Of a DNA stretch of 64,000 nucleotides, positions 5,820 to 48,500 are shown in pieces. The notes under the pieces are model-generated. The model had not been told where the DNA came from. It did not search any database and worked only from the letters and a program-made list of their open reading frames with translations. The first letter of the stretch is position 1; each line of letters begins with the position of its first letter. The DNA comes from Heterodontus francisci (taxonomy: Eukaryota): NCBI RefSeq assembly GCF_036365525.1, contig NC_090404.1, positions 6,324,001-6,388,000 of the forward strand. Direction: 5' to 3'. The translations under genes were made by a program, and so were the position numbers.

Positions 5820-5845
5820 CCCCCTCTGTCTCTCTTCCTCTCTCG

Positions 5846-5876
<31 letters not shown>

Positions 5877-5892
5877 TCTGTCTCTCTCTTTC
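5820..5892. repeat. (CT)n microsatellite
   Basis: Direct observation. Confidence 0.9.
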
Positions 5893-7030: not shown

Positions 7031-7189
7031 CTCACTCATTTTTGCAGTGCTCTGAATTTTCCTCTGGTGAGGTTTGGAAGTTTGATTTTTTCAGTCATCA
7101 TGTGCCTTAAACAGAAGATTTAAAACATTGGTTTTTACGAACGGTCAGATCCGGCCCCTATGTTTCTTTGTAACACGGCGACTGCAAAA

Positions 7190-23776: not shown

Positions 23777-25383
23777 TATTATGATGTGCTGCACAGATCC
23801 TCCAGTGCACTGTTGCTACTAACAGGGTGTCTGAGACGTTGGATGTATTTCCTTTCCTGAGATGGGAATAATTCACATAGTTTCACAACTGAAAAAATAA
23901 AATTGATTCCAGTATTGTTGCTGGGTAGATTTGTTTATGAATATGCCTCATTGGCAATGTTAAGGGTTTGAAGTTGGCTTGCAGCCAAGCGGTCAGTAAT
24001 GAGGAAAGAGATCTTTGATTGACTGCACAGAACCCCCAGATGCTTCCTGTAAATAACATTTACACCTCCTTGACAACAGTCGGTTGGATTGCAGCCAAAT
24101 ACTGTGTGAGGCAGATTAGCGTGAATATGAAAGGACAAAGACAGGATTTAACCATTTGAACATTAACTTATCAGCAGTGATCTTCCAAAAAAAAAGCATT
24201 TTACGAGGTATCACATTTAAAGAATAATTTTCTGTAAATTCAGTTAGCATATTATGATAAAATGGGAGCGCCAAATAATAAATTGACCCACGTGATAATT
24301 AAATATAATTCTGGATAATTAAGATCATTTAATTCGGGCTGCTTGAAATTCTGGAGAGAACTTTTAATGACACCCCCCAAACACACACACACCGGAATGA
24401 GATATTGGGAATTGCAAAATGAATAAATAGGTGGAATTGTCTTGAACCCGCTGCATTTCCTTGAATATTCTCACAGAGCTGTGAATCACATTCAGCTAAA
24501 TACTCCTTTATTACTGATAACAGCTGCGTGCTATACAGTTTAATTTATCATAATTTGGATTGCTTAACAAGCCTTTTCATTGCCAGGCTACCAATGGGTA
24601 GAGAAATTCCCAGTTTATGATATGATTCTGCAGCAGATAAAGCGTTTATTCTTGTGATATTCAGTAGCATAGCGCTAAGTACTGATCTATCGCGTTCCTG
24701 AGACCAGTGCATATTGAACAGTGTGTCGCTAATAAAGTTAGCTGCAACGCTTTGCTGATCGCCATATCGGTTCTGATTCACCAGCTCCTCTTTTTCAAAA
24801 GCTGGTATGAATTTTACGTGTCACTCTTTAATTATCAGGCAAGCGGACTTCTTTTGCAAATAATTTTCAAAGCTTGGCTTCGGATCACAGAGTCAAGAGC
24901 AATTTGTGAAATACAGAGAGTGAGACACACTTGTATAATGTGAGGCGTTTCTATTCACTCTGGTCCTAAATTGTGTAACTACAGCCATTCGCACTGCAAA
25001 TAGAATCACTTTACTAATATCTCGCATTTAGTTGCACAAATTGATAACAATTCAAATTATCGGTGGTACGTTATTGGTGTAGATTGAAAGAATAGATCGA
25101 CCGGGATGGATTAACATCTACTAACAGTCACTTTGGACCCTGGCAACATAACTTAATCTAAAAGATTCACATGCCCTCTGAAGAGGTGAGAGAATAAAGG
25201 GATTTAATTCGCAGCCCACAATGCAATTATTTATTATTGAACAAATTTTCAACTGCAATATCTCCATTTACGACCAAGTAACACTTTGCACTGAAATCAT
25301 ACCGTCCTATGAATTTCCATGGATACAGATAAAATGTTCACATTTACTAGTAGTCCAATGTAATGATATGAGTCCGTTCTGTT

Positions 25384-25481
25384 AGTGATGTGGAAGGTGG
25401 GACGTGGATCCAGTAACCGCCTCTATCAGGGAATCAATAGGCGGCGCCTATAACCTCGCCCCCTTCTGCCGGGTATTTAAA
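25384..25481 (+). promoter_or_regulatory. VH promoter: decamer-like AGTGATGTGG (25384-25393) and TATA box TATTTAAA (25474-25481)
   Basis: TATA about 90 bp upstream of the leader ATG; no perfect octamer nearby. Confidence 0.7.
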
Positions 25482-25572
25482 TGCCGGTCACTGGGACCGC
25501 AATACAACAGTCCGGGAGCCGGTTTGCTCAGTGAGTTCTTACCAGAACCATTTTCCCCGAATTGCCAGAAGG

Positions 25573-25618
25573 ATGAGGTCGGCGATTACTCTCAGTCTGT
25601 TGCTGGTTTTCTTATCCC
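25573..25618 (+). CDS. IGHV: IgH V leader exon (MRSAITLSLLLVFLS-)
   Basis: ATG, hydrophobic signal peptide, phase-1 donor C|GTGAGT; 126-bp intron. Confidence 0.95.
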
Positions 25619-25744
25619 GTGAGTAGTTTTTATTGTCCAAGTCTCTCGCTGTTACTGTCACAGTATTCGACTCTCTCTGAAATGTTACAGAGTCAGGAAT
25701 CATTTCACCAGGATTAATCCTAAGGGTTTTTGATATTTTTACAG

Positions 25745-26049
25745 GTGTCCATTCGGATGTCGTGTTGACTCAGCCAGAGGCAGAGACCGGGAAACCCGGA
25801 GGCTCCCTGAGACTGACCTGTAAAACCAGCGGGTTCGATCTTAGCAGCGCTTACATGCACTGGGTCCGACAGGTTCCCGGGCAGGGGCTGGAGTGGTTGG
25901 TTTACTACTATAGTTCATCCAACAATGCTTACGCCCCAGAGATTAAGGATCGATTTACTGCGTCCAAAGACACTTCAAACAACATCTTCGCTTTGGACAT
26001 GAAAAACCTGAAGACAGAAGACACCGCCATCTATTACTGTGCAAGAGAT
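25745..26049 (+). CDS. IGHV: IgM VH exon, germline and open
   Basis: Acceptor TTTTACAG|; [45 protein letters not shown] with canonical Cys/Trp/Cys. Confidence 0.98.
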
Positions 26050-26088
26050 CACAGTGACAGGAACCAGGGCTGGACCCGTACAATAACA
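26050..26088 (+). other. VH 3' RSS, 23-bp spacer
   Basis: CACAGTG (26050-56), 23 bp, ACAATAACA (26080-88). Confidence 0.96.
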
Positions 26089-26471
26089 GATCATGAGCGA
26101 ATTCGACAAATTCTATTCTAACCTGACGGTCAGTAATTGTATTAAATACAATCTTAACGGCAGCGTTCAGAACCAGACCATATACAGTCTCTTACAGAAC
26201 TAACACAGTGAAAATTCAATGGTGCAAATTTAAGACACTGACCGATGTTCTGATGAGTATCTTTGGCTGTGCTGATTTTTAATGTTAACAGTGTTAGCAG
26301 TTGCAGACCTGGATAAGATGTTAGTTTAATTTAACTGATTCCTAGAGCGAGTTACTTGCAGTCACTTCCTGCTGCATGGTGTAAACGTTTGGATATATTC
26401 TGAACTAGATCAGAAGCGAATTCATATTTGAAGTGAATATTGAGAGGCAGTACTGAACAGAGAGTGAGTGC

Positions 26472-26499
26472 AGTATTTGTGCGGTTTCGTGTCACTGTG
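26472..26499 (-). other. D1 5' RSS, 12-bp spacer
   Basis: AGTATTTGT, 12 bp, CACTGTG. Confidence 0.93.
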
Positions 26500-26514
26500 G
26501 GTACAGCAGTGGGT
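26500..26514 (+). CDS. IGHD: DH1 segment GGTACAGCAGTGGGT
   Basis: 15 nt between two RSSs; open in all three frames (GTAVG / VQQW / YSSG). Confidence 0.93.
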
Positions 26515-26552
26515 CACGGTGCTATACAGATGGAGTTCCTCATACAAAAACC
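26515..26552 (+). other. D1 3' RSS, 22-bp spacer
   Basis: CACGGTG, 22 bp, ACAAAAACC. Confidence 0.93.
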
Positions 26553-26865
26553 CCAGACAGGGAGTTTGCTCAAACTTACGATCACTGCCACGGCAGAATG
26601 GCCGTAAACAATGAGGTTTAAATAAAATGATGGGGAAAACGTAATATAGATTTCTAAAAATGTATAAAAGTCTCCTGCTTTATTAGTGCTGAATGTCACC
26701 TTACATCAGCACAGATGCTTCAGAAATATTCCGATCTCTTTATAAATATAATGACCAGTACGTACTGAATTATCTAATTGATGTACTCTTCTGGTAGTCA
26801 GAATCAGTTTTTTTTGAGAGCACTGTGGAATTTGATCTCTGTATTTTACAATTACAGTCCACCGC

Positions 26866-26893
26866 AGTATTTGACACGGTGTGTCTCACTGTG
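26866..26893 (-). other. D2 5' RSS, 12-bp spacer
   Basis: AGTATTTGA, 12 bp, CACTGTG. Confidence 0.92.
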
Positions 26894-26906
26894 ATATACT
26901 GGGTGG
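26894..26906 (+). CDS. IGHD: DH2 segment ATATACTGGGTGG
   Basis: 13 nt between two 12-RSSs; open in all three frames (IYWV / YTGW / ILG). Confidence 0.92.
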
Positions 26907-26934
26907 CACAGCAGTTACTGTCAATACAAAAACT
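26907..26934 (+). other. D2 3' RSS, 12-bp spacer
   Basis: CACAGCA, 12 bp, ACAAAAACT. Confidence 0.92.
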
Positions 26935-27260
26935 CCCTCAACACTAATTGATGAGTCTGGGTCAGTGCTCGCTTTTACAATCCAACTGCATATACAGTGA
27001 AGTACTATTTGTGTCCAGCACTGTCCTCCTAGCACGGTTTATTATGGATAAACTGATTAATTACTCATTCATCAGTTGGTGATTTCAATAATTGCTGATA
27101 TGTTACTGTGTGAAATATAAATCATCAGGGAAATTAATAAAGAGTGAAAAGAATTATTAACGCAGTTATAATTTTACAAAGAACCCTCAAGAATTTATTT
27201 TGCCTCTGGGGTGTGGATATTTAAAATAATAATGGAATTCTCACTATTCTGTGCAGAGCC

Positions 27261-27299
27261 AGTTATTGTGTGACCCAGCCCAGGGAATGTAACACTGTG
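27261..27299 (-). other. JH 5' RSS, 23-bp spacer
   Basis: AGTTATTGT, 23 bp, CACTGTG. Confidence 0.94.
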
Positions 27300-27347
27300 A
27301 CTATCTTGACTACTGGGGACAAGGGACCATGGTGACGGTGACTGCAG
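27300..27347 (+). CDS. IGHJ: JH segment (YLDYWGQGTMVTVTA)
   Basis: WGxG motif; donor G|GTAAG. Confidence 0.97.
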
Positions 27348-27439
27348 GTAAGAAACATGCATTTATTCAGTAACTGTTTTATTTGTGTTTTTCTTTTATA
27401 TTTCGATTTATTTTAATGATACATTCGTTCACTGAAATG

Positions 27440-28650
27440 TGGGCTCAATGGATTCTATGTTGAGAGTTGTTGCATAGTTTTATGTGATTTTGCTGTAAAG
27501 GGATTATAGAATTTAATGTCTTTTCCACAAACGGTGCTGTTGAGGGATTCAGTTACTGTTTGATGTGATTTGGTGTTTATTTGCTGATGAGATTGTGTGT
27601 TTAGGCTACTTTAAATACCTAATTGTTGTGAAACTGACGTTTCTGTCATGTTTAATCTTGATGACATCTAGTTGCTGCAGGTTTTCTGATCGAACACAAA
27701 CAATACGTGTTTAATTATGTTTGAAAGATTATAGGCAGAAAGCTTCAGCAGTCAAAATAGCCTAACGATATTTCGATCTATTTTTATTTGTGGTAATTAA
27801 ATTGGCATCTATCAATCTACTGCTCACGAACGCTCATATGTAATACAATAAGATTTGATATAATTATGAACTACATAAGTAACAAATTTGCAGATTAAGA
27901 TTAATATAATCTCACTTATTAAAATGTTGTGATATCAGCCAATATCAATGAAATATGCTATAGTATCAACGATAATTTATTAAACAATTTCTGTACTAAC
28001 AATTCTGCTACCATTATGTTATATATCGCGCAACTTCAGTAACTAACTTGTTCCGAGACAGCCGGGCTCGATGGAGTCTGTACTGAGATCTTTTGCAATG
28101 TTTCATTGGATTCTGTTGAAAGTTTTTTGTATAATTAAGCTGCTTCTCCATGAAATGTACTGTGGCAGGATTCAGTCCGTCAGTGATGTGATTTGGTGTT
28201 TATCTGCTGAAGAGAGTGTGTTACTTTAAATAAGTAAAATTTGTGAAACAGTTTGGCATTTCGGCATTGTTTAATCTCGAGCGGCTGCAGGTTTTCCAAT
28301 TGAATGGAAACATTCTATGTGTTTAAAACTGTTTGAAAGCCGATTGTAGCCGGAAAACTGGCAGGTTTCAGAAATGATAAGAAGCATTTTAAGATATTTC
28401 AAGGTTTTTAAAAAAAATTTACGTGCTAATTGCAGATTAAACTATGAAGCTGTGGTTTGCGACGCTCATTCAGTACGTGAAATGTTACTGCAATGACACG
28501 CTGCATAATTAGAAAGTTTACAGATTGAAGAGTAAAGTTAATGTCATTCAAACAATTATAATGTGACAATATCTCCTCATATAAACCAAATATGTTTTAA
28601 TATGAACATCGAATCATTATTCATTAATCACCTGTCACACTTCTGGTGTG
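27440..28650 (+). repeat. Diverged tandem duplication (about 0.6-kb unit) in the JH-C-mu intron
   Basis: GGATTCAGT..GATGTGATTTGGTGTTTAT at 27545 and 28168; CTGCAGGTTTTC and TGTTTGAAAG recur collinearly. Confidence 0.75.
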
Positions 28651-30024
28651 CCATGCGCACAATTATCGTGACCTGAAAAATTTGTGGGCTGGAGACAATT
28701 TTTAATTATGCTTGAAATTATTTCAATAAGAGCGAATTTATTCCAGTGCTGTGTTCAGTTTTATAAATGCTTTTGAATTAATTGTTATACTCCTGATTAA
28801 AACAAGTGAATTACAGCAAGTATTTATTTATAATTATCAATAATTATCACTAATCTAATATTAACATTTTCCTGAGACAGGAAGTTGCTGGCAGTCAAAG
28901 AATTGCAGATATGATTTTATTTAAATTGAAGAAAATTGCAAACTGCGTAAGGCGAGAGCCAAACAAATAACACCTTGAAATTCAAGCAGATTCAATTAAT
29001 TACAAAGGGTTGATATTAGTTTTGTATTCAATAACAGCATCCTGTCACCCATAGCTGTGCTGCACACAGGATAGCATTATAGGCAAAGAACAGATTATAC
29101 CTGAGAGTTATTCTTAATTCTTACTCAATATTAAATTGATCAACAAAATCTCGACCACATTTGTTCATTAAGTTTCAAATGTCGCAGATGGTCTGAAAGA
29201 AGTATTCTCATCCAATTTTACAGTGATCATTTTGGAGCTTCTTTCAATTAAAAAAGGACAATATATTTAGCAATTAATTTACAGGGATTGTGTGCATTAC
29301 GAGAGTAAAATATAAAAACATTGTGTGATTAAATAGTGGCAGCACCGTTACTGATCGCAAACTGCCCGGATGTTTTTGATATTTTTCTTATATGGTTAAG
29401 ATTTATGACAATATTTAAACACCAGAGTCCTGCTTTCACAAACAGGCGATGTTATAGCCCATGAACAGTTAGTGAGATGTGACCCTGGCTAGGCTTGAAA
29501 CTATTTAAAATGTTCCACTCTTAAATTCATCGTGTGAAATACTCGCTGAGAATAGATGGAGTTTATGATATATCAACACATTCAGATACATGCACAGTTT
29601 ACAAATTTGTAGATAGGAAACAAGGTGGGAGTAGAAATTATTGTTCATTTCAAATTATTGAACTGTGATTCGATTTCAGTAAAAGGAATTAATTTGTCTG
29701 AATGTTTTCATCTATTAATATGACGTTTATTATTTAATATTGATTAAGTGTCATAATAATTTAATTAAAACCCCATTATTTCACAAGGTGCCAGGCAGAA
29801 ACTGGTCTTGAATTAATATTAACTAATGTTTAAAAATACTGCATTAAATCAGCTAACATGAATTTTAACTGAGAATATAATAGTGCTAATTCATTAAACA
29901 TAAATGAGCTCCCACAATTCAGTAGTATAATTGCCAGGATTCAAATGAGTGCAAAATCTCAAGGGCCGGGGAGAATTTTGAATTATGCCTAAACATAACT
30001 TAAAGAACAATAGATTTCTTACTC

Positions 30025-30250
30025 AAATAAAAACAAGAAATGCTGGAAATACTCATCAGGTCTTGTAGCATCTGTGCAGAGAGAAGCAGAGTTAACGTTT
30101 CAGGTCAGAGACTGAGTTCTGAAGAAGGGTCTCTGACCTACAACGTTAACTCTGCTTCTCTCTGCACAGATGCTGCCGGACCTGCTGCATATTTCCAGCA
30201 TTTCTTGTTCTTATTTCAGATTTCCAGCATCTGCAGTATTTTGCTTTTAC
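30025..30250. mobile_element. Palindromic short interspersed element (MITE- or Penelope-derived)
   Basis: About 190-bp self-complementary hairpin; a related half copy at 49815-49944 has a 10-bp TSD. Confidence 0.7.
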
Positions 30251-30984
30251 ATTTCTTCCTCAGCTGTTCTCAGCTCGATAAGGTGTCACCGCAGATTTTA
30301 ATGAATTAACTTTGTGTCTTGGTTCATTTTTTTGGCAAAACTGAATTAAGAACTTATATCAAACCAGTGGGTAAATGTCTCCTGATTTTTTAAATTCTTA
30401 CTCTGCCACTGTGTTCCTGTTACAGACATCAAATTTTCCTGAATGTGAATTGTTTTGATGTACTCATTTGAAGGGAGACTATCTCTTACATGTATTTAAG
30501 ATTGCAAACAGAAAGGGAGAAACAGTTGGAGGTCGAAGGGAGTTTTTGAAATGATTATTAGTTTAATTTCAAAGAGCTTACAGACTTAGAGTGATCACAA
30601 TTTGACAATTGAATCAATTGATAAATTAGAATCAAACAGCCTCGTTGAAATTGACAGATTGAACAGATCTATCTGCTAAGAGCCCAAATATTACACCGTT
30701 TGTGTCTGTTCTGTTTCTGTGCACCTGCTCACGGTATCTGGACGAGGATTCCTCCATACAGGTTGTAAACAGTCTGGGTCGTTCTCCTGCAAAGCAAGGA
30801 ATGCAACTTGATCCATTTATTTAAGAAACTTGTACCTGTGAGAAACTTAAAATTTTGACTTTAAGTTTGATGAGGCGCCTCAGCAATGAGATCAGTATCC
30901 CAGTCTGTGACAATCAGAAATAACAGTTCAAAGATACGACAGACAGACTGTAGAAGGAAATTTGGTCAGTTTGTAATCAGTAAT

Positions 30985-31330
30985 GTACCTCCCTTGGGAG
31001 TGTTTGATTCGGCAATGCAGAGGAAACTTTACTGTATATTTAATCCATACTGTAACTGTCCTGGAACCGTTTGCTGAGGACAGTGTAGAGGGAGAAATTA
31101 CACTGTATCTAAAGCGGGTTCAACCTGTCCTGGATGTATTTGATAGCACAGCATAGAGGGAGTTTTATTTTATATTAAACTAGTGCTGTACCTGACCCAG
31201 AGTGACAGTGCCTGTGGCTTTCCACGGAATATAACAATTGCGATGACCTTCAGGTCATGACAGGGCCGTACAAGGGGGTCTTTACTATATAGCTTAACTT
31301 TCCTGTACCTGACCCGAGAGTGATAGCCCC
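30985..31330 (+). repeat. Degenerate ~68-bp minisatellite
   Basis: Unit like GTACCTG(T/C)CCTGGGAGTGTTTGATGGGACAGTGTAGAGGGAGCTTTACTGTATCTAA; inverted copy at 43825-44060. Confidence 0.7.
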
Positions 31331-32029
31331 ACAGTATTCAAGGACCCTTAATCTGCATGTAACTAATAAGTTGTGAGTTGTCGACCCAGGTATATGAAAA
31401 TAAATTATTCAATTGCCCAGATGAAACAACGCAAATTAATTGATGTAAATATACTTTCATGGCCAAATTTTAATGAATTAATAATATCTAAAAATGTTAA
31501 GTATCCGATAATTATTGAATGAGATGGGCCTGATTTTGAGCGCACTTTCAGAACAAAGAGTTTCAGGAAGTGACCGTAACGCTCTGTTCTGATCTGATGG
31601 GAGACTGGAAGTTCTTTCGGCGCTTTAAATTGAGAAAGTCGACACTCCCGCTCCCAATAACCATCATGATCATTTCATGTTTGAAACTATTATTTCGTTC
31701 AAGTATTTTCAAAAGGTAACAGGCAGTGATAAACTCTGGTGAGATGCAGTTATTGGACTGGGTCACAGCTGAAGTTACAAAACCACTGCAGTAAGCTTCT
31801 GTGAAACTTTTGAAGTGATACAGTTAGCCCGCAATCAATGTCAATCACAATAAGCTTGAAGTCACTGACAGTATCTGATTGACTCATTTGTATTAAATCC
31901 TTCAGATCCTCTTATTTTAAAAGTCCTCTTTCGTTATAACAAGCAATAAAAATATATGTCACAGAGTTGTTCAAATTTATGAAGCCTTTCCTCCCATTAA
32001 ATTGGAAAGAGCTAATTCTACTGACTTGA

Positions 32030-33175
32030 GTAGAATCATAGAATCTTCTCGCATGTAATGTGGCCATTCAGCCCGCCATGCCTGTGTTCACTCTCAAAGA
32101 GCTCTCCAATTTAATCCTACAAGCCAGCTTTTTCCTCATAACCATGCAAATTAGTCTCCTTCTAGGACATGTCCTGTTGCCTTGTGCACTCCAGATGCGC
32201 TTACAGAGAGCATGCACAGACAGGACAGGTTGAATCGTCTCCCTTTGTGTTGTAACCGTTCAATGCTTCTATGAAAATCACTCTCTGTCAGTAAAGAGAT
32301 CTCCTTCCGCAGCCACCACCCCGCCCACACTCCATTTTGTTGTCAAATATTTATTTTGCTACTGAATCACTTGCCAGAGGAAACAGTTTCTCCGTATCTG
32401 TTATATCAAACATCCCATAATTTTGAACATACCTATTCGGTAACCGCCGAAGAAGAACAATTCTACTTATATAATCTCTCTACATAACTGAACTCCCTCA
32501 TTCTTGACATCATGCTGGTAAACTCCCTCTGCACTCTCCCCAAAGCCTTGGCATCCTTCTGAAAGTATGTTGGCCAGAATTGTGTGAACATATTTCAGCC
32601 TAATCAGTGATTTGTAAAGCTTTAATATGACTTCCTTGTTTTTTGTATTCAATACTCCATTTTACAAGAGCAAGTATCCCATTTGCTTTTTTAACCACCT
32701 TCAAAACATTGTGAATATACACCTTAGGTCCCTCTACATTTCTACCCTCTTCAAAATAGGACCATTTGGATCACATTAACTTTCTGTGTTATTCCTCAGT
32801 AAGTGCAATACTTCATATTTAACCGCATTAAATTGCATCTGCTATGTCCTTGAACATTTCACCAGTCTGTCTATGTCCTCCTGAACTCTGTTACTATCCA
32901 GATCTCTGCTTGCTTTGTATCATCCTCTAACTTCGAAATTCTACTCCCCATACTCAAGACCACGTCATTATATTGAACAAAAAAACAATGACCCTCCGAC
33001 TGACCAAGGGGGATCACAATGCTTTTTTTTTTCCAATTAGAAAAGCATTGGTTCACCGTCTCTCTCTCTGCTTCCTATACTTGAGCAGGTTACCACCATC
33101 CCTTTAATCCATACACTTCTATTTTCTGAATGTTCTCTTTTGTGGTATATTTTCGAATGCCATTTGAAAGCCCAC
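32030..33175 (-). mobile_element. Degenerate CR1 fragments in the J-C intron
   Basis: KNKEVILKLYKSLIR and ISKLEDDTK remnants; CR1 tail. Confidence 0.7.
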
Positions 33176-33920
33176 ATGTCCTACTTTTGCGCCACCAGCA
33201 TCGACAATCTCTCGGTGAGCCAGCTTTCAATAGCTGACCAATAAGCCTCAAGTGGTTGAATTGTCCACAGAAGTGAGAGTTGACCATGTCAGCAATAACA
33301 CTTCACTAATTTTTGTCCTTCTGATATTCACTCGATGTATAATGTGTAAGTGATGTCAATATCTGATATTTATAGAAGAAACCTGTCCTGATGTTCACAT
33401 TATGGTCGGTGCAAGCAGCAAGAAGAGGTGTCTGTAACGACACAGTCAGCAACACCAGTTATCACTGGTGAGGGGTGGGAAGATACTTTGGAAAACTAAA
33501 AGGACTATTGAAAGAACATCATTCCAGATGTCCGACTTTTAGGAATCGGATTTAATTCGGATTATTAATTTATTTGGAGAGAGAAGCAAACTCCGGAGAG
33601 ATCCATTCAGTAGAATAAGATAGAACACAAATCACAATCCTCAAGCACTGAGAAGGAAAGTGATAGCCTAGAGTCAATGCTGAGTCATATAAAACTTTAA
33701 TTCCAGAAACTAGGTTGTGTAAAATTCCCCTCTAAAATCTGTGTACTATATGATTCAGTCCATATTTTAACGGAAACTTCAATTATTATTCTAAAAATTC
33801 TTTATTGTCAAGGGGATGTAGAAGATTAAGCGAGTTGGGCTGTAGAGGAAGAATGAAGGAAGAGGGTATGAATCTACTTTTCTACAAAGGGGGTTGTTAG
33901 GATCTGGGATGATCTGGGAT

Positions 33921-34255
33921 GGGCGGCACAGTGGCGCAGTGGTTAGCACCGCAGCCTCACAGCTCCAGGGACCTGGGTTCGATTCCAGGTACTGCCTGTG
34001 TGGAGTTTGCAAGTTCTCCCTGTGTCTGCGTGGGGTTTCCTCCCACAAGCCAAAAGACTTGCAGGTTGATAGGTAAATTGGCCATTATAAATTGTCACTA
34101 GTATAGGTAGGTGGTAGGGAAATATAGGGACAGGTGGGGATGTTTGTTGGGAATATGGCATGAGTGTAGGATTAGTATAAAAAATGGGTGGTTGATGTTC
34201 AGCACAGACTCGGTGGGCCGAAGGGCCTGTTTCAGTGCTGTATCTCTAATCTAAT
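33921..34255 (+). mobile_element. HE1-type SINE
   Basis: GGGCGGCACAGTGGCGCAGTGGTTAG (A box), GGTTCGATTCC (B box), CR1-like tail. Confidence 0.88.
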
Positions 34256-34866
34256 TTATCAGAAAGAGGGTTGTAGACAGAATCCAAAATAGCTGGGTAA
34301 AATGGAACTTTTGAAAAGAAGGTCAGTGGGATCTTTCACAGGCCTGATGGACACTACCCAGAACTGCACCTGGGTCGCTGGGTCTCTGAGGCTGCGGTGC
34401 GAACCGCTGCATCACTGTGCCGCCCGAAACGTAGTCGATGGTTTTTAGGCGGCTTGGGGTGGGGGAACGCAGCAGTCTATTTGCAGAGAGCAAATTTCCA
34501 GAACTGCAATTAAAAAGGTCGAGTGTTTTTTTTGACAAAATGCTGCTGGTTAGGAATAAATACTGACCGAAATAACGGGGAAACTCCTCTTCCAGTTTAA
34601 CCCAATGGAAGGTAGTTTATAGAGATGACTTCAAAAGGTTATTACTTTAGTAATGTGACAGGTCCTGAAAGAGAGGTGTTTTCCTGAACAGGGGACCCGA
34701 CAGGTGATGATCACCAAATGATGGAACTGATGAAGCTCAAATGCGGATGAAGGTTTTAACCAGAAAATATTGGAATCAGTTTCTAGCTGGAGTCAAATTC
34801 CGAGTTGTCTGGTTAATAAGCATGAATCACAGAGTCTAACTTGTTCAAAATGTCATTCTTTCCCAG

Positions 34867-35163
34867 CGACACCGTCTCCCCCAACACTTTACGGCCTGTG
34901 CTCCTGTGACCAACCCAACACCGGCGGCTCCGTGGCCTACGGCTGTTTGGCGATGGACTACATCCCCCAAATCACCCGCGTTTCCTGGAAGAAAGATAAA
35001 GAGCCGATCACCACTGGATTGAAGACTTACCCGTCAGTGCTGAACAAGAAGGGAACCTACACCCTGAGCAGCCAGTTAACCATCACCGAGTCAGAGGTGG
35101 GAAGCAGCAAAATCTACTGCGAGGTTCAACGCGGAGAGTCAGTCTGGATCAAAGAAATTCCAG
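34867..35163 (+). CDS. IGHM: C-mu1 exon
   Basis: Acceptor TTCCCAG|; [39 protein letters not shown]; donor G|GTTAG. Confidence 0.96.
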
Positions 35164-35358
35164 GTTAGTGTTGTGGAAACTGTGAAAAACAGAAAAGGTA
35201 TCGTTATCTTGTGTAGAGGTTTGGCTATCGTGCACAGTTCTGATCCCTGGAAACTCCAGTTAGTGTCTGCTTGACAGCAAAAAACCTGTAAAATTATTAG
35301 AACAGTTTGAGTTAGTTATAAACGTCTTCCAGAAATGTCTAACATGTTTTTCTTGAAG

Positions 35359-35676
35359 ATTGTAAAGGTGACATCGTCCATCCAACTGTTATCCTCACCC
35401 AGAGTTCCAGTGAAGAAATCACAAGCAGCAGATTTGCAACTGTCGTGTGTTCAATCATCGATTTCCATCCAGAGTCAATAACCGTGAGTTGGTTGAAGGA
35501 TGGACAACCCATGGATTCGGGTTTCGTCACCTCTCCCGCCTGTGAAGCAAACGGAAACTTCTCGGCGACCAGCCGGCTGACAGTCCCCGCTGGGGAATGG
35601 TTCACCAACACGGTCTATACCTGCCAGGTCTCCCATCAAGAGGTCACCCAAAGCCGAAACATCACCGGATCTCAGG
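35359..35676 (+). CDS. IGHM: C-mu2 exon
   Basis: Acceptor TTGAAG|; [40 protein letters not shown]; donor G|GTAAG. Confidence 0.96.
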
Positions 35677-36009
35677 GTAAGAGACACAAACCGAGGAAGA
35701 TCCAGATCATTTTGTGCTCCGATGATAATCAAATGTAACAATTTATTGGAATTATTACAAAGCACTGAATATTTTTCCAATTCGCCATCGTGCAGTTGTA
35801 TGCCTCAATCCGCTGCGAGTGCTGAATTAGAATTGCTCACAGTTCAACATGTCATCACATCACCAAAGAATGTTTCCTTCTGCTTTGATGGCATACAGTG
35901 AGTGAGGTGGCCTTGATATCAGGTTGATCGTGATTTGGCCGATCATATTCGAAGCGGCAATAGGTGTTTGGAACTCTTTCCTGGTCACAACCTCGGCATC
36001 AAGTGCCAG

Positions 36010-38240
36010 AATGAGCATCTTCCCTATTTAGAAAATTGTGTTCAATTCTGGACTCATGAGCTCAGGAAGAATATATTGGCCTTGGGAGTGATGCAACACA
36101 CATTGAGTAGAATGATAGCGGGGCTGAACTGGTTAAATTAAGAGGACAGAATTCACAGGCAAAACTTTGTGTATAGAAGATGAAAGGGTGATTTGCTTGA
36201 GGTGTTTAAGATGTTTACTGGAATTGATGGAGCCGATGGAAAAAAATATTTCCTCTGGTGGGGACTCCAGAACAAGATGGCATAACTTTCAAATTAGACC
36301 AAGGTCATTCAGGGATGATTATCAGGAAAGCTATTCACACAGTGGGTGGAGGAAATCTGGAATTCTCTCCCTCAACTCGCTCTTGAGGTTTGGAATCAAT
36401 TGAAAATTTTCATTTTGAGATTGATAGTTCGAAGTTTGGCAAAAGTATTAAGGGATACATATGGGCTGGATGGATTGCATCCCAGGTTGTTAAAGGAAAC
36501 CAGGGAGGAAATAACGGATGCGCTGAGGATCATCTTCGGATCCTCACTAGATACAGGAGAGGTACCAGACGACTGGAGGTCTGAGAAAGTTGTACCATTG
36601 TTTTCAAAGGATGCGAGTGATAGGCCAGTCAGTCTGACCTCGGTGGTGGGTAAATTGTTAGAATCTGTTCTGAGGGACAAGATAAACTGCCACTTAGGAA
36701 GGCACGGAGTAATCAGCGATAGTCAGCATGGATGTTTTAAGGGAAGGGTATGTCTTTCTAACTTAATTTAGTTTTTTGAGGAGGTAACAAGAAGGATTGA
36801 TGAGGGTAATGCAGTGGATGAGGTCTACATGGACTTTAGTAAGTCATTTGACAAGGTCCCACAGGGCAGACTGCTCAGTACAATGAAAGCCCATGGGATA
36901 CAGGAGAATGTGGCAGGTTGGATCCAGAATTGGCTCAGGGCCAGGAAACAAAGGGTATTTGTCGACGGATGTTTTTGTGAATGGAAAACTGTTTCCAGTG
37001 GGGTTCCACAAGGTTCAATTTTGTATCCCTTGTTGTTTGTGGTATATATTAACGATTTGGACATAAATGTGAGAGGCATGATTGGGAAATTTGCTGGTGA
37101 CACAAAAATTGGCCGTGTAGTTGATAGTGAAGAGGATAGCCGTAGACTCCAGAAAGATATCAATGGTTTGGTTGAGTGGATGGAAAAGTGGCAAATGGAA
37201 ATCAATCCACAACGGTGTGAGGTACTAGATTTGGGGAGGGCAAATAAAACAGAATGATATTGAGATGGGTGGAAGAAGTGAGAGACCTTGGAGTGCATGT
37301 CCATAGGTCCCAGAAGGTGGTAGGACAGGTGGATAGAGTGGGGGTGAGGGGGGGGGGGGGGTTGTTGGGGGAGGTGAAGAAGGCACATGGAATGCTTTCC
37401 TTTATTGACCAAGGTATAGAATTCAAAAGTAGGGATGTAATGCTGGAACGATATAAAATGCTGGTTAGGCCGCAGTTGGAGTATTGCGTGCAGTTCTGGT
37501 CACCACATGACAGAAAGGGCATGATTGCTCTGGAGCGAGTACAGTGGAGATTTCCAAGAATGTTGCCAGGGCTTGAGAGTTGCAGCTATGAGGAAAGGTT
37601 TGATAGGCTCGGGTTGTTTTCCTTGGAACGGAGGAGGCTGAGGGGTGACTTAATAGTGGAGTCATAGAGTCATAGTGTTATACTGCACAGAAACAATCCG
37701 CTCGGCCCATCATGTCTGTGCTGGCCATCAAGCATCTAACTATTTTAATCCCATTGTTCAGCACTTGGCTCGTAGTCTTGTGCATAATTGTAAGGGTCCG
37801 AGATAGAGTAGACAGGACGGATCTGTTTCCCCAAGTGGAGAGGTCTATTACCAAGGGCACAGATTTAAGGTGATTGGTAGGAGGGTTAGAGGGGACATGA
37901 GGAAAAACTTTGCTACCCAGAGGATGGTGGATGTCTGGATTTCACTGCCAGGAGCGGTGGTGGAGGGAGAAACTCTCAATTCGTTTAAAAGGTACCTGGA
38001 CATACATCTGAAGAGCTGTAACTGGCAAGGCTATGGACCAGGACCTGGAAGGTGGGATTGGATTGGGCGGTTAGTTTTTCTTCCGGCCGGCCCGCCACGA
38101 CGGGCTGAATGACCTCCTTCTGTGCCATAATTTTTCTATGGTTCTATGGTAGCCTGTATTAAGATACAGATCAGCCATTGTCTATTGATTGGCGAAACAG
38201 GCTCGAGGGGCTGAATGGGCAACTCTTTTTTTCTATGTTT
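36010..38240 (+). mobile_element. Composite CR1 fragments in the C-mu2/C-mu3 intron
   Basis: RT motifs YMDFSKSFDKVP, GVPQGS, KFAGDTK, PQLEYCVQFWSP; TTCTATG tails. Confidence 0.88.
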
Positions 38241-38971
38241 CTATTATTGCCCTCTGGTCGGATCGCCTTCTGAACCCTGACTGACATATGAGGAGTTCTC
38301 ACTCATGACAGATATTAGCAAGCTGTCTTACACCATAATTGCAAATTATTCTCCTCAAAAAGACTCCGTGGAACTGCATTTTCCCGACCTTTCACCCCTC
38401 CTCCTACGTTTTTCCAGTACCCCAAATATGGTGACAAGACGCCAGAAAATTAAGTTTGTTACCCGTTGGGCCTAAAATTCTGAATTTCATTTGACACTCG
38501 TTTTGAGCCAGTGTGAATTACATGCACAGCTCGTGTCCTTGGATGGCAGAGCCATTATATTCAGCGGAGATGTGATCCGTTGCAAGGATCGATGGACGGG
38601 CGGAAATACGAACACACGAATTAGAGGCAGTAGTGTGCCACTCGGCCCCTCGAGCCTGTTCTGCCAGGGATTTTAGGAAGAACTTTATTTAGTGCATAAC
38701 ACAATTTCGCCCACAATTATTCGGTTTTTACGCCGGGTACTTGCTTCAAAGCCCATTGCTGCCTTCTTAGGGTGCAAATACACAGTATAAGTTATAGAAT
38801 CTTCCGGAAGCGTTTTCAGGTTGTTGTCTTTCCAATCAACGATATTATTTCAACAACAGCTAGAGATTGATATCTCGAAGTTGATTTATTCTCCGAGAGA
38901 CAGTGAAGGCTGAATATTGGTGTCTGATTCTGAAGATGAATCTTTGTTTGTCTTTCATTTCTGTTTTACAG

Positions 38972-39280
38972 TTCCTTGTTCCTGCAATGATCCAGTAATT
39001 AAACTACTGCCACCATCAATAGAACAGGTCTTACTGGAGGCGACGGTGACCTTAACCTGCGTCGTGTCTAATGCTCCTTATGGCATCAACGTGTCCTGGA
39101 CACAAGAACAGAAACCTTTGAAATCAGAGATTGCCGTCCAACCCGGAGAGGATTCCGACAGTGTGATCAGCACCGTAGACATCTCGACACAATCCTGGCT
39201 GAGTGGGGTTGATTTCTTCTGCGTGGTGAGCCATCAGGATCTGCCGACTCCTCTCAGAGATTCCATCCACAAGGAAGCAG
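38972..39280 (+). CDS. IGHM: C-mu3 exon
   Basis: Acceptor TTTACAG|; [38 protein letters not shown]; donor G|GTGAG. Confidence 0.96.
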
Positions 39281-39765
39281 GTGAGCGGTGAGATTGAAAA
39301 AAAAATAGTGAGAGGTTGTGCTTATTTCCAGTGTTTGTGCAAGGCCCAATTCAACCTGTTAAATGGTTGAATGGATTACTCTGATAATTTAATTGTAATT
39401 CACTAACGAACCTCTCTGGAACCATCAGTGATGCATTTAAAGGCAAACTAGAAACGTAGATGATGGAGAAAGGAATAGAAGGAATTGAAGTAAGGTGAGA
39501 GGAGATTCGTGTGCAGCATAAACACCAGCACAGGCTAGTTGGGCCGAATGGCCTGTTCCCGTGCTGTAAGTTCTATGTAATTTTTCATTCCAATCCTTTA
39601 CGTTGTCAGCCAGGGGAATGCACCCGCCTCTGCTCTGGGCTGGAATGCGGGCCAGGCCCCAGAGGGGAAAAGGAAAACCTTGAAAATTTCTCTCACATCT
39701 AACCACTGGTTTCATTGTATCTGTAATTCTCCAGTTTATTAATATTTATTTTATTTTTTCTGCAG

Positions 39766-40157
39766 TTAAACATCTGCGGGAACCGTTCGTGTCTGTCCTC
39801 CTGCCCCCGGCAGAAGATGTCTCCGCTCAGAGGTTTCTCTCCCTCACCTGCTTAGTGAGAGGTTTCTCCCCCAGGGAGATCTTCATCAAGTGGACCGTCA
39901 ATGACAAGTCGGTGAATCCCGGCAACTACAAGAACACCGAGGTGATGGCGGAGAACGACAATAGCTCCTTCTTCATCTACAGCCTGTTATCCATTGCAGC
40001 GGAGGAGTGGGCCAGCGGCGCTTCTTACTCCTGTGTGGTGGGACATGAAGCGATCCCCTTGAAGATCATCAACAGAACAGTTAATAAATCCAGCGGTAAA
40101 CCGAGTTTTGTGAACATTTCCCTTGCACTGTTGGACACTGTCAATTCATGTCAATGA
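39766..40157 (+). CDS. IGHM: C-mu4 exon plus secretory tailpiece (internal donor after 40095 for the membrane form)
   Basis: Acceptor TCTGCAG|; [22 protein letters not shown]..; tailpiece [20 protein letters not shown] with N-glycan site and penultimate Cys; AGCG|GTAAA donor. Confidence 0.97.
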
Positions 40158-42175: not shown

Positions 42176-42743
42176 TGCCAGATTATAGACGAAAGCAGAA
42201 TTCAAATGCGCTATTTGAACAGACACCGTCTTCAACATTTTTCCTCATACATGTAAGACCTACAATTTCAATGAAGCAATGTTTTCACTTAGAAACTGAG
42301 ATAAGTTATTGATTTTTAAATAAACAAGCAAAATTGGAACTCGCATCCGATCCCTTACCCAACAACATTGACAATCTCCAAATAAGTATCTATCTGAACC
42401 TATCTTCAATATAATTGCTATCAATCGGTAAACCTCCCTCTATATCTCACCATAATAATGCCCAATGATAGAACAAAATCGATCTAAACTAAAATAGCGC
42501 CTGACACTGAAAAAAAAACTGACATATTTTCCAACACGACCTGGGCGAGGATCATAAGGCAAGAACGCTGAGGAGTGACAGAGATAGCTGGCTGAACATG
42601 ATTAACTGACTCGATAAACATTGAAAATTAAATTGAAGAACAAAATAATGGCTCAAGGAAGTAAATTGCGAATGTAAAAGAGCAATCTTATATTTAGGAT
42701 TAATAAGAGATCTAAATACATTTCCTCCCCTACATCTCCGTAG

Positions 42744-42871
42744 ATTCATCAGACCACATCTGGATTGAAGACAATGAGGAAGAGAGCGGCAACATCTGGA
42801 CAACCGCTTCCACATTCATCATCCTGTTCTTCCTGAGCATTTTCTACAGTGCTGCTGTCACTCTGGTGAAG
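42744..42871 (+). CDS. IGHM: IgM TM1 exon
   Basis: Acceptor CCGTAG|; DSSDHIWIEDNEEESGNIWTTASTFIILFFLSIFYSAAVTLVK (CART motif); donor AAG|GTGAG; missed by the ORF track. Confidence 0.96.
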
Positions 42872-43016
42872 GTGAGAATACTCAATCCACTCACATTTCA
42901 AGTTGATTGAAGCTGTTTGACAAGTCTCTAAAGTTTTCACAGATTAAAATAAACCTGCGAGATGTATGTCCCAGAACACCAAATCTCTGCTTCATTCTTT
43001 TATCCCTCTTTTACAG

Positions 43017-43025
43017 GTCAAGTAA
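43017..43025 (+). CDS. IGHM: IgM TM2 exon (VK-stop)
   Basis: Polypyrimidine tract then TTACAG|GTC AAG TAA, giving the KVK cytoplasmic tail. Confidence 0.93.
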   Translation, partial: VK

Positions 43026-43246
43026 TCGCTTGAATTTCGGCCGCCCTGGATTTTCCTCATTTTTTAAAACCTCTTTGCATTATCAAAAAACTGTAAAATT
43101 AAAATGCCTTCAATTTATGTTTCCGAATCCGTAGATGAGAAAATCGGAAGCACTGTTTCAGTTTTTCTGTTTGAAATGTATGATATAATCGTGGTTATAA
43201 TGTAAATGTATCTTCGAGATTCACCGTTGTCTGAATTTCATGTGTA

Positions 43247-43252
43247 AATAAA
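43247..43252 (+). terminator. Membrane-form poly(A) signal
   Basis: First AATAAA after TM2, followed by T-rich sequence. Confidence 0.7.
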
Positions 43253-43824
43253 TAACTATTCTTTATTCACAATTGTTTTCTTCCCTTTATGTTGAGCCCC
43301 TGTTTTTTTCTCTCTGGTCTGTTACAGTTTTATAGACAGCTGGCATCTCGGACCGCATGTGTACTGTTCTTGATGTGTCACGCAGTTGTTATTATTCAGT
43401 TTGAACCTTTTTAAAAATTTATTCTTTTGAAAATTGTTAATAAAACTTGAATAACAAATGGAATAAGTTGCCGAATTCCTTAACACAAGGCCCATCTACA
43501 CGCTGCATTTTCCCCATTACAAGTTTTTCCCCTTTCCTGACAGCTATTTTTCACCGGTCCTGTTTGGGTTGGGTTTCAATGCACTCCGGTGAAAGAGATG
43601 CTGCGCCATCCAGTGTCCCATCAGAGTAAACACTCCTTTTCCCCTGCTTGATGATGTCAATCTCCAGAGACATTATGACCGCAGAGCGACCAGGAGCATC
43701 TCACTGACATCTTTCATTTTCGGGTCGGTCACAGTCACGTGCCAGGTTATGTCAAAGGGCAACACTCTGCTCCATCATAGCCTGACATACAACAGTATAT
43801 GGAAGATATGTTAAAATAGTGTAT

Positions 43825-44060
43825 GTCACATCAAACTTTTCCAGGGAAGGCATGGCATCGATTAGATACAGAGTAAAGCTCTCTCTACTTTGTCCCATCA
43901 AACACTGCCAGGGCAGGAACGGGCCAGGTTAAATAAAAAAGTAAAACTCTCCCTACACTGTGCCATTAAACACTGTCAGGGCATGCACAGCACGGGTTAG
44001 ATAGAGGGTACTGCTCCCTCTACATTGACCCATCAAATACTGCCAGGACAGGTAAAGCAC
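43825..44060 (-). repeat. ~68-bp minisatellite, inverted relative to 30985-31330
   Basis: CCCATCAAACACTGCCAGGGCAGG..AGATACAGAGTAAAGCT units. Confidence 0.7.
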
Positions 44061-44584
44061 AGTGTAGTTATATGACAGACACGTGGGGAAGTACAAATCC
44101 TGAGAAGCATTACTAGAGACCTGTGCCTATGCAGCATCAAGCACAAATGCTGGCAATCATTCCAAGAGCCTGGGGTCCATCTGACACGCCAGGGAGCACA
44201 AACTCGAGGAATGATCCCAGAGCTTGGGGACTATCTCATGCACCAGAGTGATTTGCAAAGCCTGAAGTCTATGTGACAAACAAGGAAGCAAAAGTGGTGG
44301 GATGATTCCCAGTGTTTGAGGCTTATCTAACAGAAGAGAGTGCATAAACTGTGGGAATGATTAACGCAGTCTGATCCTATCCAATACAGAGACTCTAACT
44401 TGACATTTTCTGTTTTGCACACAAACAGAAACTCTCCACCTGCTCTGCTCAAACACACAATCCAATTTTCTGTCATGCACATGGCGAATCTCCACCTCCA
44501 CCTTTTCTATTATACTTGGTACCCCTGACGCTCTGTCACATGTTTGCCTGCTGAACCTCCTCTCTGCTCTGTTTCAATCCGTCT

Positions 44585-45400
44585 GATACCATCTACCTAA
44601 ATTCACTGAACATTATCCCAGGGATCCTATCTCCCTGCTCCATTCCCTCTGGTACCATCTCCCTGAACTCAAACATCACCCCAGGGATCCTCTCTCCCTG
44701 CTCCATTCCCTCTGGTACCATCTTCCTGAACTCAAACATCACCCCAGGGATCCTCTCTCCCTGCTCCATTCCCTCTGGTACCATCTTCCTGAACTCAAAC
44801 ATCACCCCAGGGATCCTCTCTCCCTGCTCCTTTCCCTCTGATGCCATCTCCCTGAACTCACTGAACATCATCCCAGGGATCCTATCTCCCTGCTCCATTC
44901 CCTCTGGTACCATCTCCCTGAACTCAAACATCACCCCAGGGATCCTCTCTCCCTGCTCCTTTCCCTCTGATGCCACCTCCCTGAATTCACTGATCATCAC
45001 CCCAGGGATCCTACCTCCCTGCTCCATTCCCTCTGCCACCTTCGCCATGAACTCAAACATCACCCCAGGGATCCTCTCTCCCTGCTCCATTCCCTCTGAT
45101 GCCATCTACCTGAAATCACTGAACATCACCCCAGGGATCCTATCTCCCTGCTCCATTCCCTCTGCCACCTTCGCCATGAACTCAAACATCACCCCAGAGA
45201 TCCTCTCTCCCTGCTCCATTCCCTCTGATGCCATCTCCCTGAAATCACTGAACATCACCCCAGGGATCCTCTCTCCTTGCTCCATTCCCTCTGCCACCTT
45301 CGCCATGAACTCAGTGAACATCACCCCAGGGATCCTCTCTCCCTGCTCAATTCCATCCCATGCCATCTTCCTGAACTCACCGAACATCACACCAGGCTTC
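44585..45400. repeat. 63/66-bp minisatellite, 12 full units plus a partial one
   Basis: Unit ATCACCCCAGGGATCCTCTCTCCCTGCTCCATTCCCTCTG(GTA/ATG)CCATCTCCCTGAACTC(ACTG/A)AAC. Confidence 0.95.
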
Positions 45401-45569
45401 GCCGGTGACCGTCACACTTTCTCTTCCTGAGGTTTCACTCCACCCCATTCACCATCTCATCAGATTTTTCAGAGTCCCCGGTCACGGGAACATTTTCAAA
45501 CGTTTCTGATCAGACCCGAATAACTTCTGACATTTTCATTCTGAACCTGAACCACATCTATCAGAACGA

Positions 45570-48500
45570 TTCTGCGAAGTTTAATGATAGGTCGGAAGAC
45601 TGGATAAAATTTAAAGACCGGAAAGGAATGACTAAAAAAATGAGGTGGAAATTAGCGTTCGAGAGAAAGCTACCTAGAAATAGAAAGCAGGTAGTAAGAG
45701 TTTCTACAAATATTTGAAAAGGAAAAGAGTACAAAAAGTGAGCGTCGGTCTTCTGGAGAGTGAATCTGGGGAATTAATAATGGGAAACGAGGAAATGGCA
45801 AAAGCGTTGAACAGATATTTTGTGTGTCTTCAACATAGAAGACACACGTAACATCTGAGAAATGCTTCTAAGCCTCACCTCTTGAGGTGAAAGGAAGGGA
45901 GGAACTTAAATCAATCGCAATCACCAGGTAAAGGGTACTGAGAAAACTATTGGGACTAAATGCAAGCAAGTCCCCAGGACATGATGGACTTCATCCTGGG
46001 ATCTTAAGTGTTTACAGAAATAATAGATGCATTGGTTGTAATTTCCCGAACATCCCTAGATTCTGGAAAAGTCCCATCAAATTGGAAAATAAAAAAATAT
46101 GGTCTTCCTATTCAAGAAAGGATATAGACAGAAGGCAGGCAACTACAGGCCAGTTAGCCTAACATCTGTCTTAGGGAAAGTGATAGAATCTATCATTAAG
46201 GCAAGAAAAGCAGGGCACTTAAAAATTTTAAACAGGCAGAGTCAACAAGTTTATGAAAGGGAAATCGTGTTTATTTTTATTTATTTATTTAATTATAATT
46301 TATTTGAGGAAGTAACAATCTACGCGGATAAAGGTGAACATATTGACCTGGTGTCCTTCGGTGACCAAAAGACGTTTTGCAGGTGCCACATCAAAGGTTA
46401 CGACACAGAATAAGAGCTTATCATGTAGGGGTAATATATTATTGGTTGGCGGACAGGAAACAAACAGTAGGAATAAACGGGTCTTTTTTCGAGCGGCAGG
46501 CAGTGACTAGTGGGGTACCGCAGGGATCAGTGCTAGGACCAGCTATTCACAATATATATTAATGATAGAGATGAGGGAATTAAATGTAATATATCCAAGT
46601 TTGCAGATGACACAAAGCTGGGTGGCAGTCTGAGCTGTGAGGATGATATAGAGATGCTCGTGGGTGATTTGGACAGATAGAATGAGTGGGCAAATACATG
46701 GCAGATGCAGTGTAATGAGGATAAATATGAGGTTATCCACTTTGGTGGCAAAAACAGAAAGACAAATTATTATCTGAACGTCGATAGATTGGGATAGGGG
46801 GAGATGCAGCGCGATCTGGGTGTCCTTGTGCACCAGTCGCTGAAAGTAAGCATGCAGGCAGAGAAGAAGGCAAATGGTATTTATTATTTATTTAGAGATA
46901 GAGCACTGAAACAGGCCCTTCGGCCCACCGAGTCTGTGCCGACCTTCAACCACTCATTTAGACTAATCCTACATTAATCCCATTACCCTCTCACATCCCC
47001 ACCTTCCCCCTACCACCGACCTATACTAGGGGCAATTTATAATGGCTAATTTAACTATCAACCTTCAAGTCTCTGGCTGTGGGAGGAAACCGGAGCACCC
47101 GGCAAAAAGCCACGCAGTCAGAGGGAGAACTTGCAAACTCCGCACAGCCAGTACCCAGAATCGAACTCCGGGTACTGGAGCCGTGAGGCTGCGGTCCTAA
47201 CCACTGCGCCGCCCATGTTGGCCTTCATAGCGAGAGCATTCGAGTACAGGAGCAAGGAAGTCTTGCTGCTATTATACAAAGCCTTGGTGAGACCACGTCT
47301 GGAGTATTGTGTTCCGTTTTGGTCTCCTTATCTGAGGAAGGATGTTCTTGCTATGGAAGGAGTGCAGCGAAGTTTCGCCTGACTGATTGCTGGGATGGCA
47401 GGACTTAAGTATGTAGAGGGATTTGGTCGATTAGGCTTGTATTCGCTAGAGTTTAGAAGAATGAGAGGGGAACTCATAGAAACCTACAAAATTCTAACAG
47501 AAATGGGCCGACTAGATGCAGGAAGGATGTTCCCAATGGCAGGGGAGTCCAGGACCAGGATTCACAATCTAAGGTTAAGGGGTAAGCATTTAGGACTGAG
47601 ATCAGGAGACATTTTTTTTCACCCAGAGATTGGTGGACCTGTGGAATTCTCTAATACGGAAAGCAGCTGAGACAAATCATTAAATATATTCAAGACACAG
47701 TTAAATATAGTTCTTAGGACTAATGGGATCAAGGGATACGGGGAGAAAGCGGGAACAGGTTACTGAGTTTGGATGATCAGCCACGATCCCATTGAATGTC
47801 GGAGTAGGCTCGAAGTGCCGAATGGCCAACTCCTGTTCCTATTTTCCTACGTTTCTCTTAGCTTGCATAAAGGACTGCTTAGCTAACAGGAATCAGAGAG
47901 TTGGGGTACTGGCTCATTTTCGGGTTAGTAAGCTGTAACTAGTGCAGTGCCACAGGGATCACTGCTGGGGCCTTAACTGTTTACAATCTATATCAATGCC
48001 TTGGATGAAGGGACTGAATGTAAGGCTGCTAAATTTTCTGATAATGCGGAGATAGGTAGAAAAAGTAAATTGTGGCGACATAATGAGTTTACAATGGGAT
48101 ATAGATAGATTACCTAACTGGCTAAAAATTGGCAGGTGGAGTATAATGTGGGAAATGTGAACTTGTCAACTTTGGTAGGAAGAATAGAAAAGCGGCATAT
48201 CATTTAAATGGAGAGAGATTGCAAAACTCTGCGGTACAGAGGGACTTGGGTGTCCTGGTACGTCAGCCACAAAAAGTTAGTATGCAGCTCCAGCAAGTGA
48301 TTAGGAAGACAAATGAGATGTCGTTTATTGCAATGGGAACAGAATATAAAAGTAAGGAAGTTTTGCTGCAGTTGTAAATGGCGTTGGTGAGACCACATCT
48401 GGAGTACTGTGTACAGTTTTCGGCTTCTTACTTAGGAATGGCCCCTGTGGAAACAGGCGGATAATTAATTGACTTTAGAGGGTGAAATATCAGACTGTAA

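Follow-up and report, generated by a model that had tools for sequence, protein, structure and literature searches.

The primate IgH 3′RR carries, in hs1.2, a 40-mer that is repeated up to 12 times in chimpanzee and whose reporter activity rises with copy number; these repeats are attached to a conserved enhancer core, and binding of Oct1, Sp1 and NF-kB has been shown (PMC3068965; PMC9936319). The channel catfish enhancer Emu3′ lies immediately 3′ of the mu gene and has a core of two variant octamers and a muE5 site; its published account names neither EBF nor YY1, and no repeat is described where it sets out the enhancer (PMC1800861). The upstream octamer is absent from shark IgH genes, and limiting trans-factors have been proposed for the few of 15–100 shark clusters that rearrange per cell (PMC2435157). 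The word ‘enhancer’ is absent from the accessible sections of a review of fish immunoglobulins (PMC5192425), and we found no shark IgH enhancer or 3′ repeat described in the open-access literature.

Here we analyse a minisatellite that lies behind an IgM cluster in a 64-kb stretch of Heterodontus francisci DNA (the window). Like the 40-bp monomer of hs1.2, it is a tandem repeat 3′ of an IgH constant region, and copy-number tuning, proposed for hs1.2, is likewise part of the enhancer reading of the array; it differs in unit length and motif, in having no octamer or NF-kB match across 43210–45700, and in being known from sequence alone. A first reading of the DNA, made from its letters only (the sequence-only reading), had drawn an analogy with catfish Emu3′, which holds for the place 3′ of the mu gene but breaks down on motifs, with no octamer and no CANNTG in the array. 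The host locus shares exon order, an octamer-less V promoter and tens of paralogous clusters with the IgM clusters of cartilaginous fish. As a repeat, the array has the features of a VNTR-type vertebrate minisatellite (63/66-bp units, 13 copies, 88% identity, a 129-bp alternation and a decayed edge unit), but differs from an ordinary one in adjoining an apparently expressed IgM cluster and in holding an EBF-type motif in nine units. We favour, at a probability of about 0.57, the reading that it is a passenger minisatellite, locally expanded and copied with a subfamily of IgM clusters, with no selected enhancer role.

Results

The window contains one complete IgM cluster of the cartilaginous-fish type on the + strand, ordered V-D-D-J-Cmu1-4-TM1-TM2. 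Its upstream part (25573..40154, + strand) comprises leader/V, two D segments, J, Cmu1–Cmu4 and the secretory tail; Pfam gave a V-set match in V and C1-set matches in the four C exons, and the two D segments and single J carry heptamers. Best matches of the Cmu4 exon were shark IgM heavy chains, the closest being the Heterodontus francisci membrane form (94% over 85% of the query); this membrane-IgM protein, P0037, aligned to the four C exons at 87–94% and to TM1 at 81%. A further protein, P0041, is labelled Aeromonas veronii and is 86% identical to shark Cmu4, probably reflecting host contamination in a bacterial record. Scanning the V promoter (25000–25575) on both strands revealed no ATGCAAAT octamer, in agreement with PMC2435157 and with the sequence-only reading, which had called the cluster octamer-less.

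Five of the 12 listed public sequencing runs contain the stretch; they derive from a single sample of a single organism, which may be the window’s own source, and none is listed as RNA. Four of them were compared over 42640–44720 at 85% likeness, a span that ends 163 bp into the array; the 0.00 share given for X6 and X12 is left out of account. TM1 (42744..42871, + strand) was located by tblastn of P0037, P0039 and P0042 and by a spliced loose end in run X5 that joins Cmu4 sequence to TM1. The TM2 exon and 3′ UTR (43017..43444, + strand) were placed by VK-stop at 43017–43025, an exact 374-base X5 contig over 43034–43406 and AATAAA at 43439, near which the poly(A) site would lie, some 1.1 kb before the array. 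X5 is labelled RNA on a software guess and behaves as RNA by its exon-only depth, which was 1800–8900 on TM1 versus 0–1.4 on the flanking introns. Given this depth, the Cmu4–TM1 join and the exact 3′ UTR contig, the cluster appears to be transcribed and expressed.

Most TM1 contigs and reads over 42640–43330 carry another letter at 42748 and 42856, and with fewer than two close equivalents of its TM introns the cluster seems to stand apart from its paralogues. Past the poly(A) signal, at 43550–43690, depth was slightly raised in the DNA run X1 (4.5–6.8 equivalents) and the capture run X8 (1.5–3.9), which could mark a conserved 3′ element or another small repeat.

The minisatellite spans 44558–45396 (no strand assigned); TRF assigned it a period of 63 (84% matches, 13.0 copies) and, above this, a higher-order period of 129. 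Cut at a common anchor, it resolves into 12 full 63/66-bp units, whose start-to-start spacings (63, 63, 63, 66, 63, 66, 63, 66, 63, 66 and 66) comprise six of 63 and five of 66, and one decayed unit at the upstream edge (44559–44613; nhmmer E 2.7e-7), placing the true start about 27 bp to the left of 44585, the start given previously. Head-to-tail units within 10–100 bp, in many copies, are those of a minisatellite, and an array of this order is well outside what chance would produce. Any two units are on average 88% identical, with no difference at all between units 2 and 3, and a 129-bp alternation runs through the 3′ two thirds of the array: units two apart differ by 4.1 substitutions versus 8.4 between neighbours, from which we infer that 129-bp blocks were recently duplicated. 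No further degenerate units were detected in either flank beyond the decayed one (p 0.34 and 0.53), and no second array of the same unit elsewhere in the window.

The array begins 1533 bp past the TM2 stop, beyond the 3′ UTR, and its first EBF-type site lies at 1590 bp, confirming the earlier placement 3′ of mu TM2. This position needs no special cause, because tandem arrays (20 after merging, five of them of at least 500 bp) fill 8.6 of the 64 kb. CpG observed/expected is 0.12 in the array versus 0.44 in the window, a weak point in favour of the passenger reading, since it reflects one unit. Folding of three units as DNA showed nothing unusual (z −1.31), and Rfam over 42500–46500 returned two weak matches, far below the gathering score and neither in the array. 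An origin of the unit in the window’s LINE copies, considered because one frame reads PQGS, was rejected, as blastn and nhmmer gave no match to the LINEs. A 24-base word of the unit had no match in metagenome and viral contigs, a search that is uninformative for shark sequence.

Several other repeats were noted in the window. A 39-bp repeat at 5723–5827 has a 13-base word in common with the minisatellite unit (E 0.16; shuffle p ~0.03), perhaps through a common origin. Right behind the array, 45397–45600 is a CpG-undepleted stretch of 200 bp (o/e 1.02, 10 CpG), followed by a LINE-like fragment; an o/e of 0.75 is reached by 14% of 220-bp tiles. Long arrays of a 27-bp satellite stand on both sides of the cluster (1682–2400, 9907–11635, 15354–16647 and 52422–54737) and produce long stop-free frames.

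Mammalian S regions are enriched in AGCT/WGCW and have a G-rich non-template strand. The array is likewise a tandem, strand-skewed repeat beside an Ig gene (G 96, C 356; + strand 69% pyrimidine, GC 54%), as would be expected of a switch-like or recombinogenic repeat serving AID-driven exchange between clusters in the manner of S or 3′RR repeats. It contains no AGCT, however, and 30.8 WGCW per kb versus 34.1 in the window; G-richness falls on the template strand, the opposite of S regions, and a G4Hunter-type score of −1.2 is reached in only 1.7% of 25-base windows. We regard a switch-like role as very improbable.

An open + frame of 291 codons (44555–45430) crosses the array, and the unit lengths keep this frame, as they would in a coding or formerly coding repeat. 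Their 3-bp difference, the only length change, is nevertheless a single event, and among 23 distinct unit variants there was no synonymous bias in any of six frames (3–7 synonymous of 22–23 changes; expected share 0.20–0.30). Searches with the minus frame, over 3653 and 6495 candidates, yielded no homologue; the 31 hits to the plus frame were 19–37% identical, and the five inspected were unrelated low-complexity repeats; Pfam returned no match above its cut-off. With no coding signal detected in these tests, a coding origin is scarcely credible.

The motif content of the units was scanned with consensus strings rather than PWMs; the EBF, YY1 and octamer strings were taken from papers. EBF1 binds the palindrome TCCCNNGGGA (PMC4312928), and the in-vivo consensus of Collier, CCCnnGGGA, has been described as like that of mouse EBF (PMC4512700). 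CCCAGGGA occurs in 11 of the 12 units, nine times as ACCCCAGGGA and twice as ATCCCAGGGA, exactly as first counted, and is replaced by CCCAGAGA in unit 10. The nine ACCCCAGGGA sites (44678..45332, + strand; starts at 44678, 44741, 44804, 44933, 44999, 45062, 45128, 45257 and 45323) match CCCnnGGGA and differ from TCCCNNGGGA at one position; the ATCCCAGGGA of units 1 and 5 and the ACCCCAGAGA of unit 10 differ from it at two, and the full palindrome is found in none of the 12. Sites in the array are four mismatches from the 14-bp SELEX palindrome. The proposal that the array consists of EBF-like sites is borne out by the nine of 12 units that match the in-vivo consensus, but not by the full palindrome, nor, as set out below, by any extra conservation.

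Among 20,000 dinucleotide shuffles of one unit, 5.0% held CCCnnGGGA and 13% a site within one mismatch of TCCCNNGGGA; 58% of 10,000 unit shuffles had at least one of 14 B-cell motifs and 18% one of nine longer ones. When the window itself is cut into 1001 tiles of 63 bp, CCCnnGGGA appears in only three, which makes the ancestral match less frequent than the shuffles imply, if still no rarity. Elsewhere in the window there are five CCCNNGGGA matches versus a shuffle mean of 5.18. The nine EBF-type sites are copies of one ancestral site, a single amplified event, and their number is therefore not an independent statistic. Across the array, variation affects two of the 10 site columns and 20 of the remaining 53, and 25% of all 10-column windows are at least as constant as the EBF site. 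Conservation of the site is no greater than that of the rest of the unit’s 5′ half, and three of 12 units fail CCCnnGGGA. The passenger reading supposes that one unit happened to hold an EBF-type site and that the array then probably grew by slippage and unequal exchange. Whatever their origin, the nine good sites, spread over 650 bp, could still be bound by EBF1.

The alternative reading, put forward from the sequence alone, is a repeat-built B-cell 3′ enhancer, in which EBF1 dimers on nine CCCCAGGGA sites would open chromatin and raise the activity of the V promoter, which lies 19 kb upstream and lacks an octamer, with unit number tuning output. The nine consensus-matching units, a position like that of catfish Emu3′, the absence of an octamer from the V promoter the apparent expression of the cluster (the exact X5 3′ UTR contig and exon-only depth) and the occurrence of the flank–array junction at a second locus, described below, are all consistent with it. 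So are the hs1.2 precedent of a tandem-repeat IgH enhancer, with its copy-dependent reporter activity at up to 12 copies (PMC3068965), and the de novo opening of chromatin by EBF1, together with E2A motifs, in mouse progenitors (PMC9437269). Against it stand the absence of the full TCCCNNGGGA, the four mismatches to the SELEX palindrome, and the lack of extra conservation and of the partner features considered next.

YY1, a ubiquitous factor, binds CCGCCATNTT (PMC7554316). The count of (G/A)CCATCT given in the sequence-only reading was correct (nine, one of them in the decayed unit), as was the single GCCATCTT, a YY1/muE1-like core on the + strand at 45362..45369. As YY1/muE1 sites these fare poorly: CCGCCATNTT is found in none of the 12 units, the best matches, including the GCCATCTT core, having two mismatches; CCATNTT occurs in three of 12, with its further copies at 44718 and 44781 (+ strand), and GCCATNTT in one of 12. 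Units 2, 3 and 12 carry CCCnnGGGA and CCATNTT together, and two of the longer motifs were found together in 1.6% of shuffles, a post hoc point against the passenger reading.

The suggestion that a 63-bp period would keep the sites in helical phase did not survive, because every 66-bp unit adds a 103-degree turn before the site that follows. With a helix of 10.5 bp per turn, the angles of the 12 anchors are 0, 0, 0, 0, 103, 103, 206, 206, 309, 309, 51 and 154 degrees, with R = 0.23 (0.16 for the nine good sites), and R is at most 0.41 at 10.4 or 10.6 bp per turn. Within the array there is no octamer of either form (ATGCAAAT or ATGTAAAT), no E-box CANNTG, and no match to the GAGGAA and NF-kB patterns; a minus-strand CAGGTG stands at 44442, upstream of the array. 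The catfish core’s variant octamer, ATGTAAAT, is present at 43200–43207 in the TM 3′ UTR, one of five such matches in the window.

The J–C intron is the position of the mammalian intronic enhancer and a more conventional enhancer site. It holds the only perfect TCCCNNGGGA of the 64 kb (30990–30999), at the edge of a stretch of 68-bp satellite, with ATGTAAAT at 31443, CAGCTG at 31766, and ATGCAAAT at 32144 beside a minus-strand GAGGAA at 32137. That the perfect palindrome stands here, within 1.2 kb of ATGTAAAT and ATGCAAAT, rather than in the array speaks against the enhancer reading, although each of these intron motifs (30990–32151) alone is at chance frequency.

Copies of the array elsewhere were sought in the same-species runs. 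In X1, exact contigs stand at a depth of about 7.1, on which scale TM1 has 67–91 equivalents, the TM introns 1.6–1.8, the upstream flank (44250–44529) 2.3–5.9 and the 68-bp satellite 17,000. The flank–array junction (44418..44644, no strand assigned) is covered in X1 by an exact contig and by a paralogous one of 220 bp (44418–44632), about 88% identical, with 21 other letters and five gaps, which runs from flank into array. A paralogous junction of flank and array is therefore present at a second locus, judged from a contig whose 220 bp stop short of any TM2. Co-duplication within a few close clusters, as the passenger reading holds likely, is expected to give such a paralogous junction and flank equivalents of 2.3–5.9 against 1.6–1.8 for the introns, and both fit.

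Array depth in X1 corresponds to about 106–111 units in total, or some 1.5 units per TM1 versus about 12 if every cluster had the array, although these depths are not copy numbers, because overlapping contigs are counted twice, and short repeat contigs and units less than 85% like unit 1 are lost. This shortfall from a 12-unit array in every cluster counts against the enhancer reading. Raw reads of X8 gave 32 units per TM1 (about 11–120, on only four to five TM1 reads), a ratio to be expected if each cluster had an array. Relative to X1, though, X8 is enriched 16–36 times more at the array and the unique flank beside it than at TM1, suggesting a capture bias. The X1 contig data thus lean against an array behind TM2 in most IgM clusters, with the limit that diverged arrays in other clusters could be missed, because the introns of the window’s cluster have few close relatives.

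The 68-bp satellite, a dispersed and very high-copy element of which some three to four decayed copies lie at 43830..44100 (no strand assigned), served as an internal control. Its stretches in the 3′ flank and in the J–C intron (30985–31210) are in opposite orientations and 72% alike, and it is abundant in the transcript-like runs. Array depth was 34-fold (X8) to 262-fold (X1) below that of this neighbouring satellite. In the transcript-like runs X5 and X7, satellite depth reached 267,000 and 156,000 and no contig fell on the array, where a dispersal through transcribed DNA like that of the satellite predicts a depth of 600–1000; missing contigs are, in themselves, no proof of absence. The array unit is accordingly neither unique to this copy, in view of the paralogous junction and the roughly 100 unit-equivalents of X1, nor a high-copy dispersed satellite, in both respects in keeping with the sequence-only reading.

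These figures bear equally on a further possibility, that the array belongs to a minisatellite family of low to moderate copy number with arrays at non-Ig loci, its place behind TM2 being incidental. The ~100 unit-equivalents of X1 exceed what two to three close paralogues of 13 units would supply, X8 allows thousands of units, and the 66-bp form makes up 4% (X1) and 16% (X8) of matched units versus six of 12 here, fractions biased by the 85% cut-off; the 13-bp word in the 39-bp repeat also points this way. The deficit relative to the 68-bp satellite, the missing array contigs in the transcript-like runs and the lack of a second array in the window argue against it. We consider such a family unlikely, but the most plausible of the alternatives.

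Discussion

The passenger reading accounts for the array as a minisatellite that probably expanded in place and was probably duplicated together with the IgM clusters of a small subfamily, likely without a selected enhancer role. That repeated copying in tandem turned one EBF1 site into a 3′ enhancer for such a subfamily is, on the evidence above, doubtful, and we rate the enhancer reading as a whole as distinctly improbable, behind a dispersed family. A copy-number-tuned IgH 3′ enhancer is, moreover, no new category, given the primate hs1.2 precedent.

Were the enhancer reading true, it would bear on how octamer-less shark IgH genes work and why few clusters rearrange per cell. Nine EBF1 dimers would replace the octamer/E-protein logic of bony fish and mammals, the length of the array would set each cluster’s chance of opening in a developing B cell, and there would be a handle on heavy-chain exclusion among ~100 loci. 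The array is probably a real but ordinary repeat, and as a passenger minisatellite it would have little importance beyond that of a marker for one subfamily of IgM clusters.
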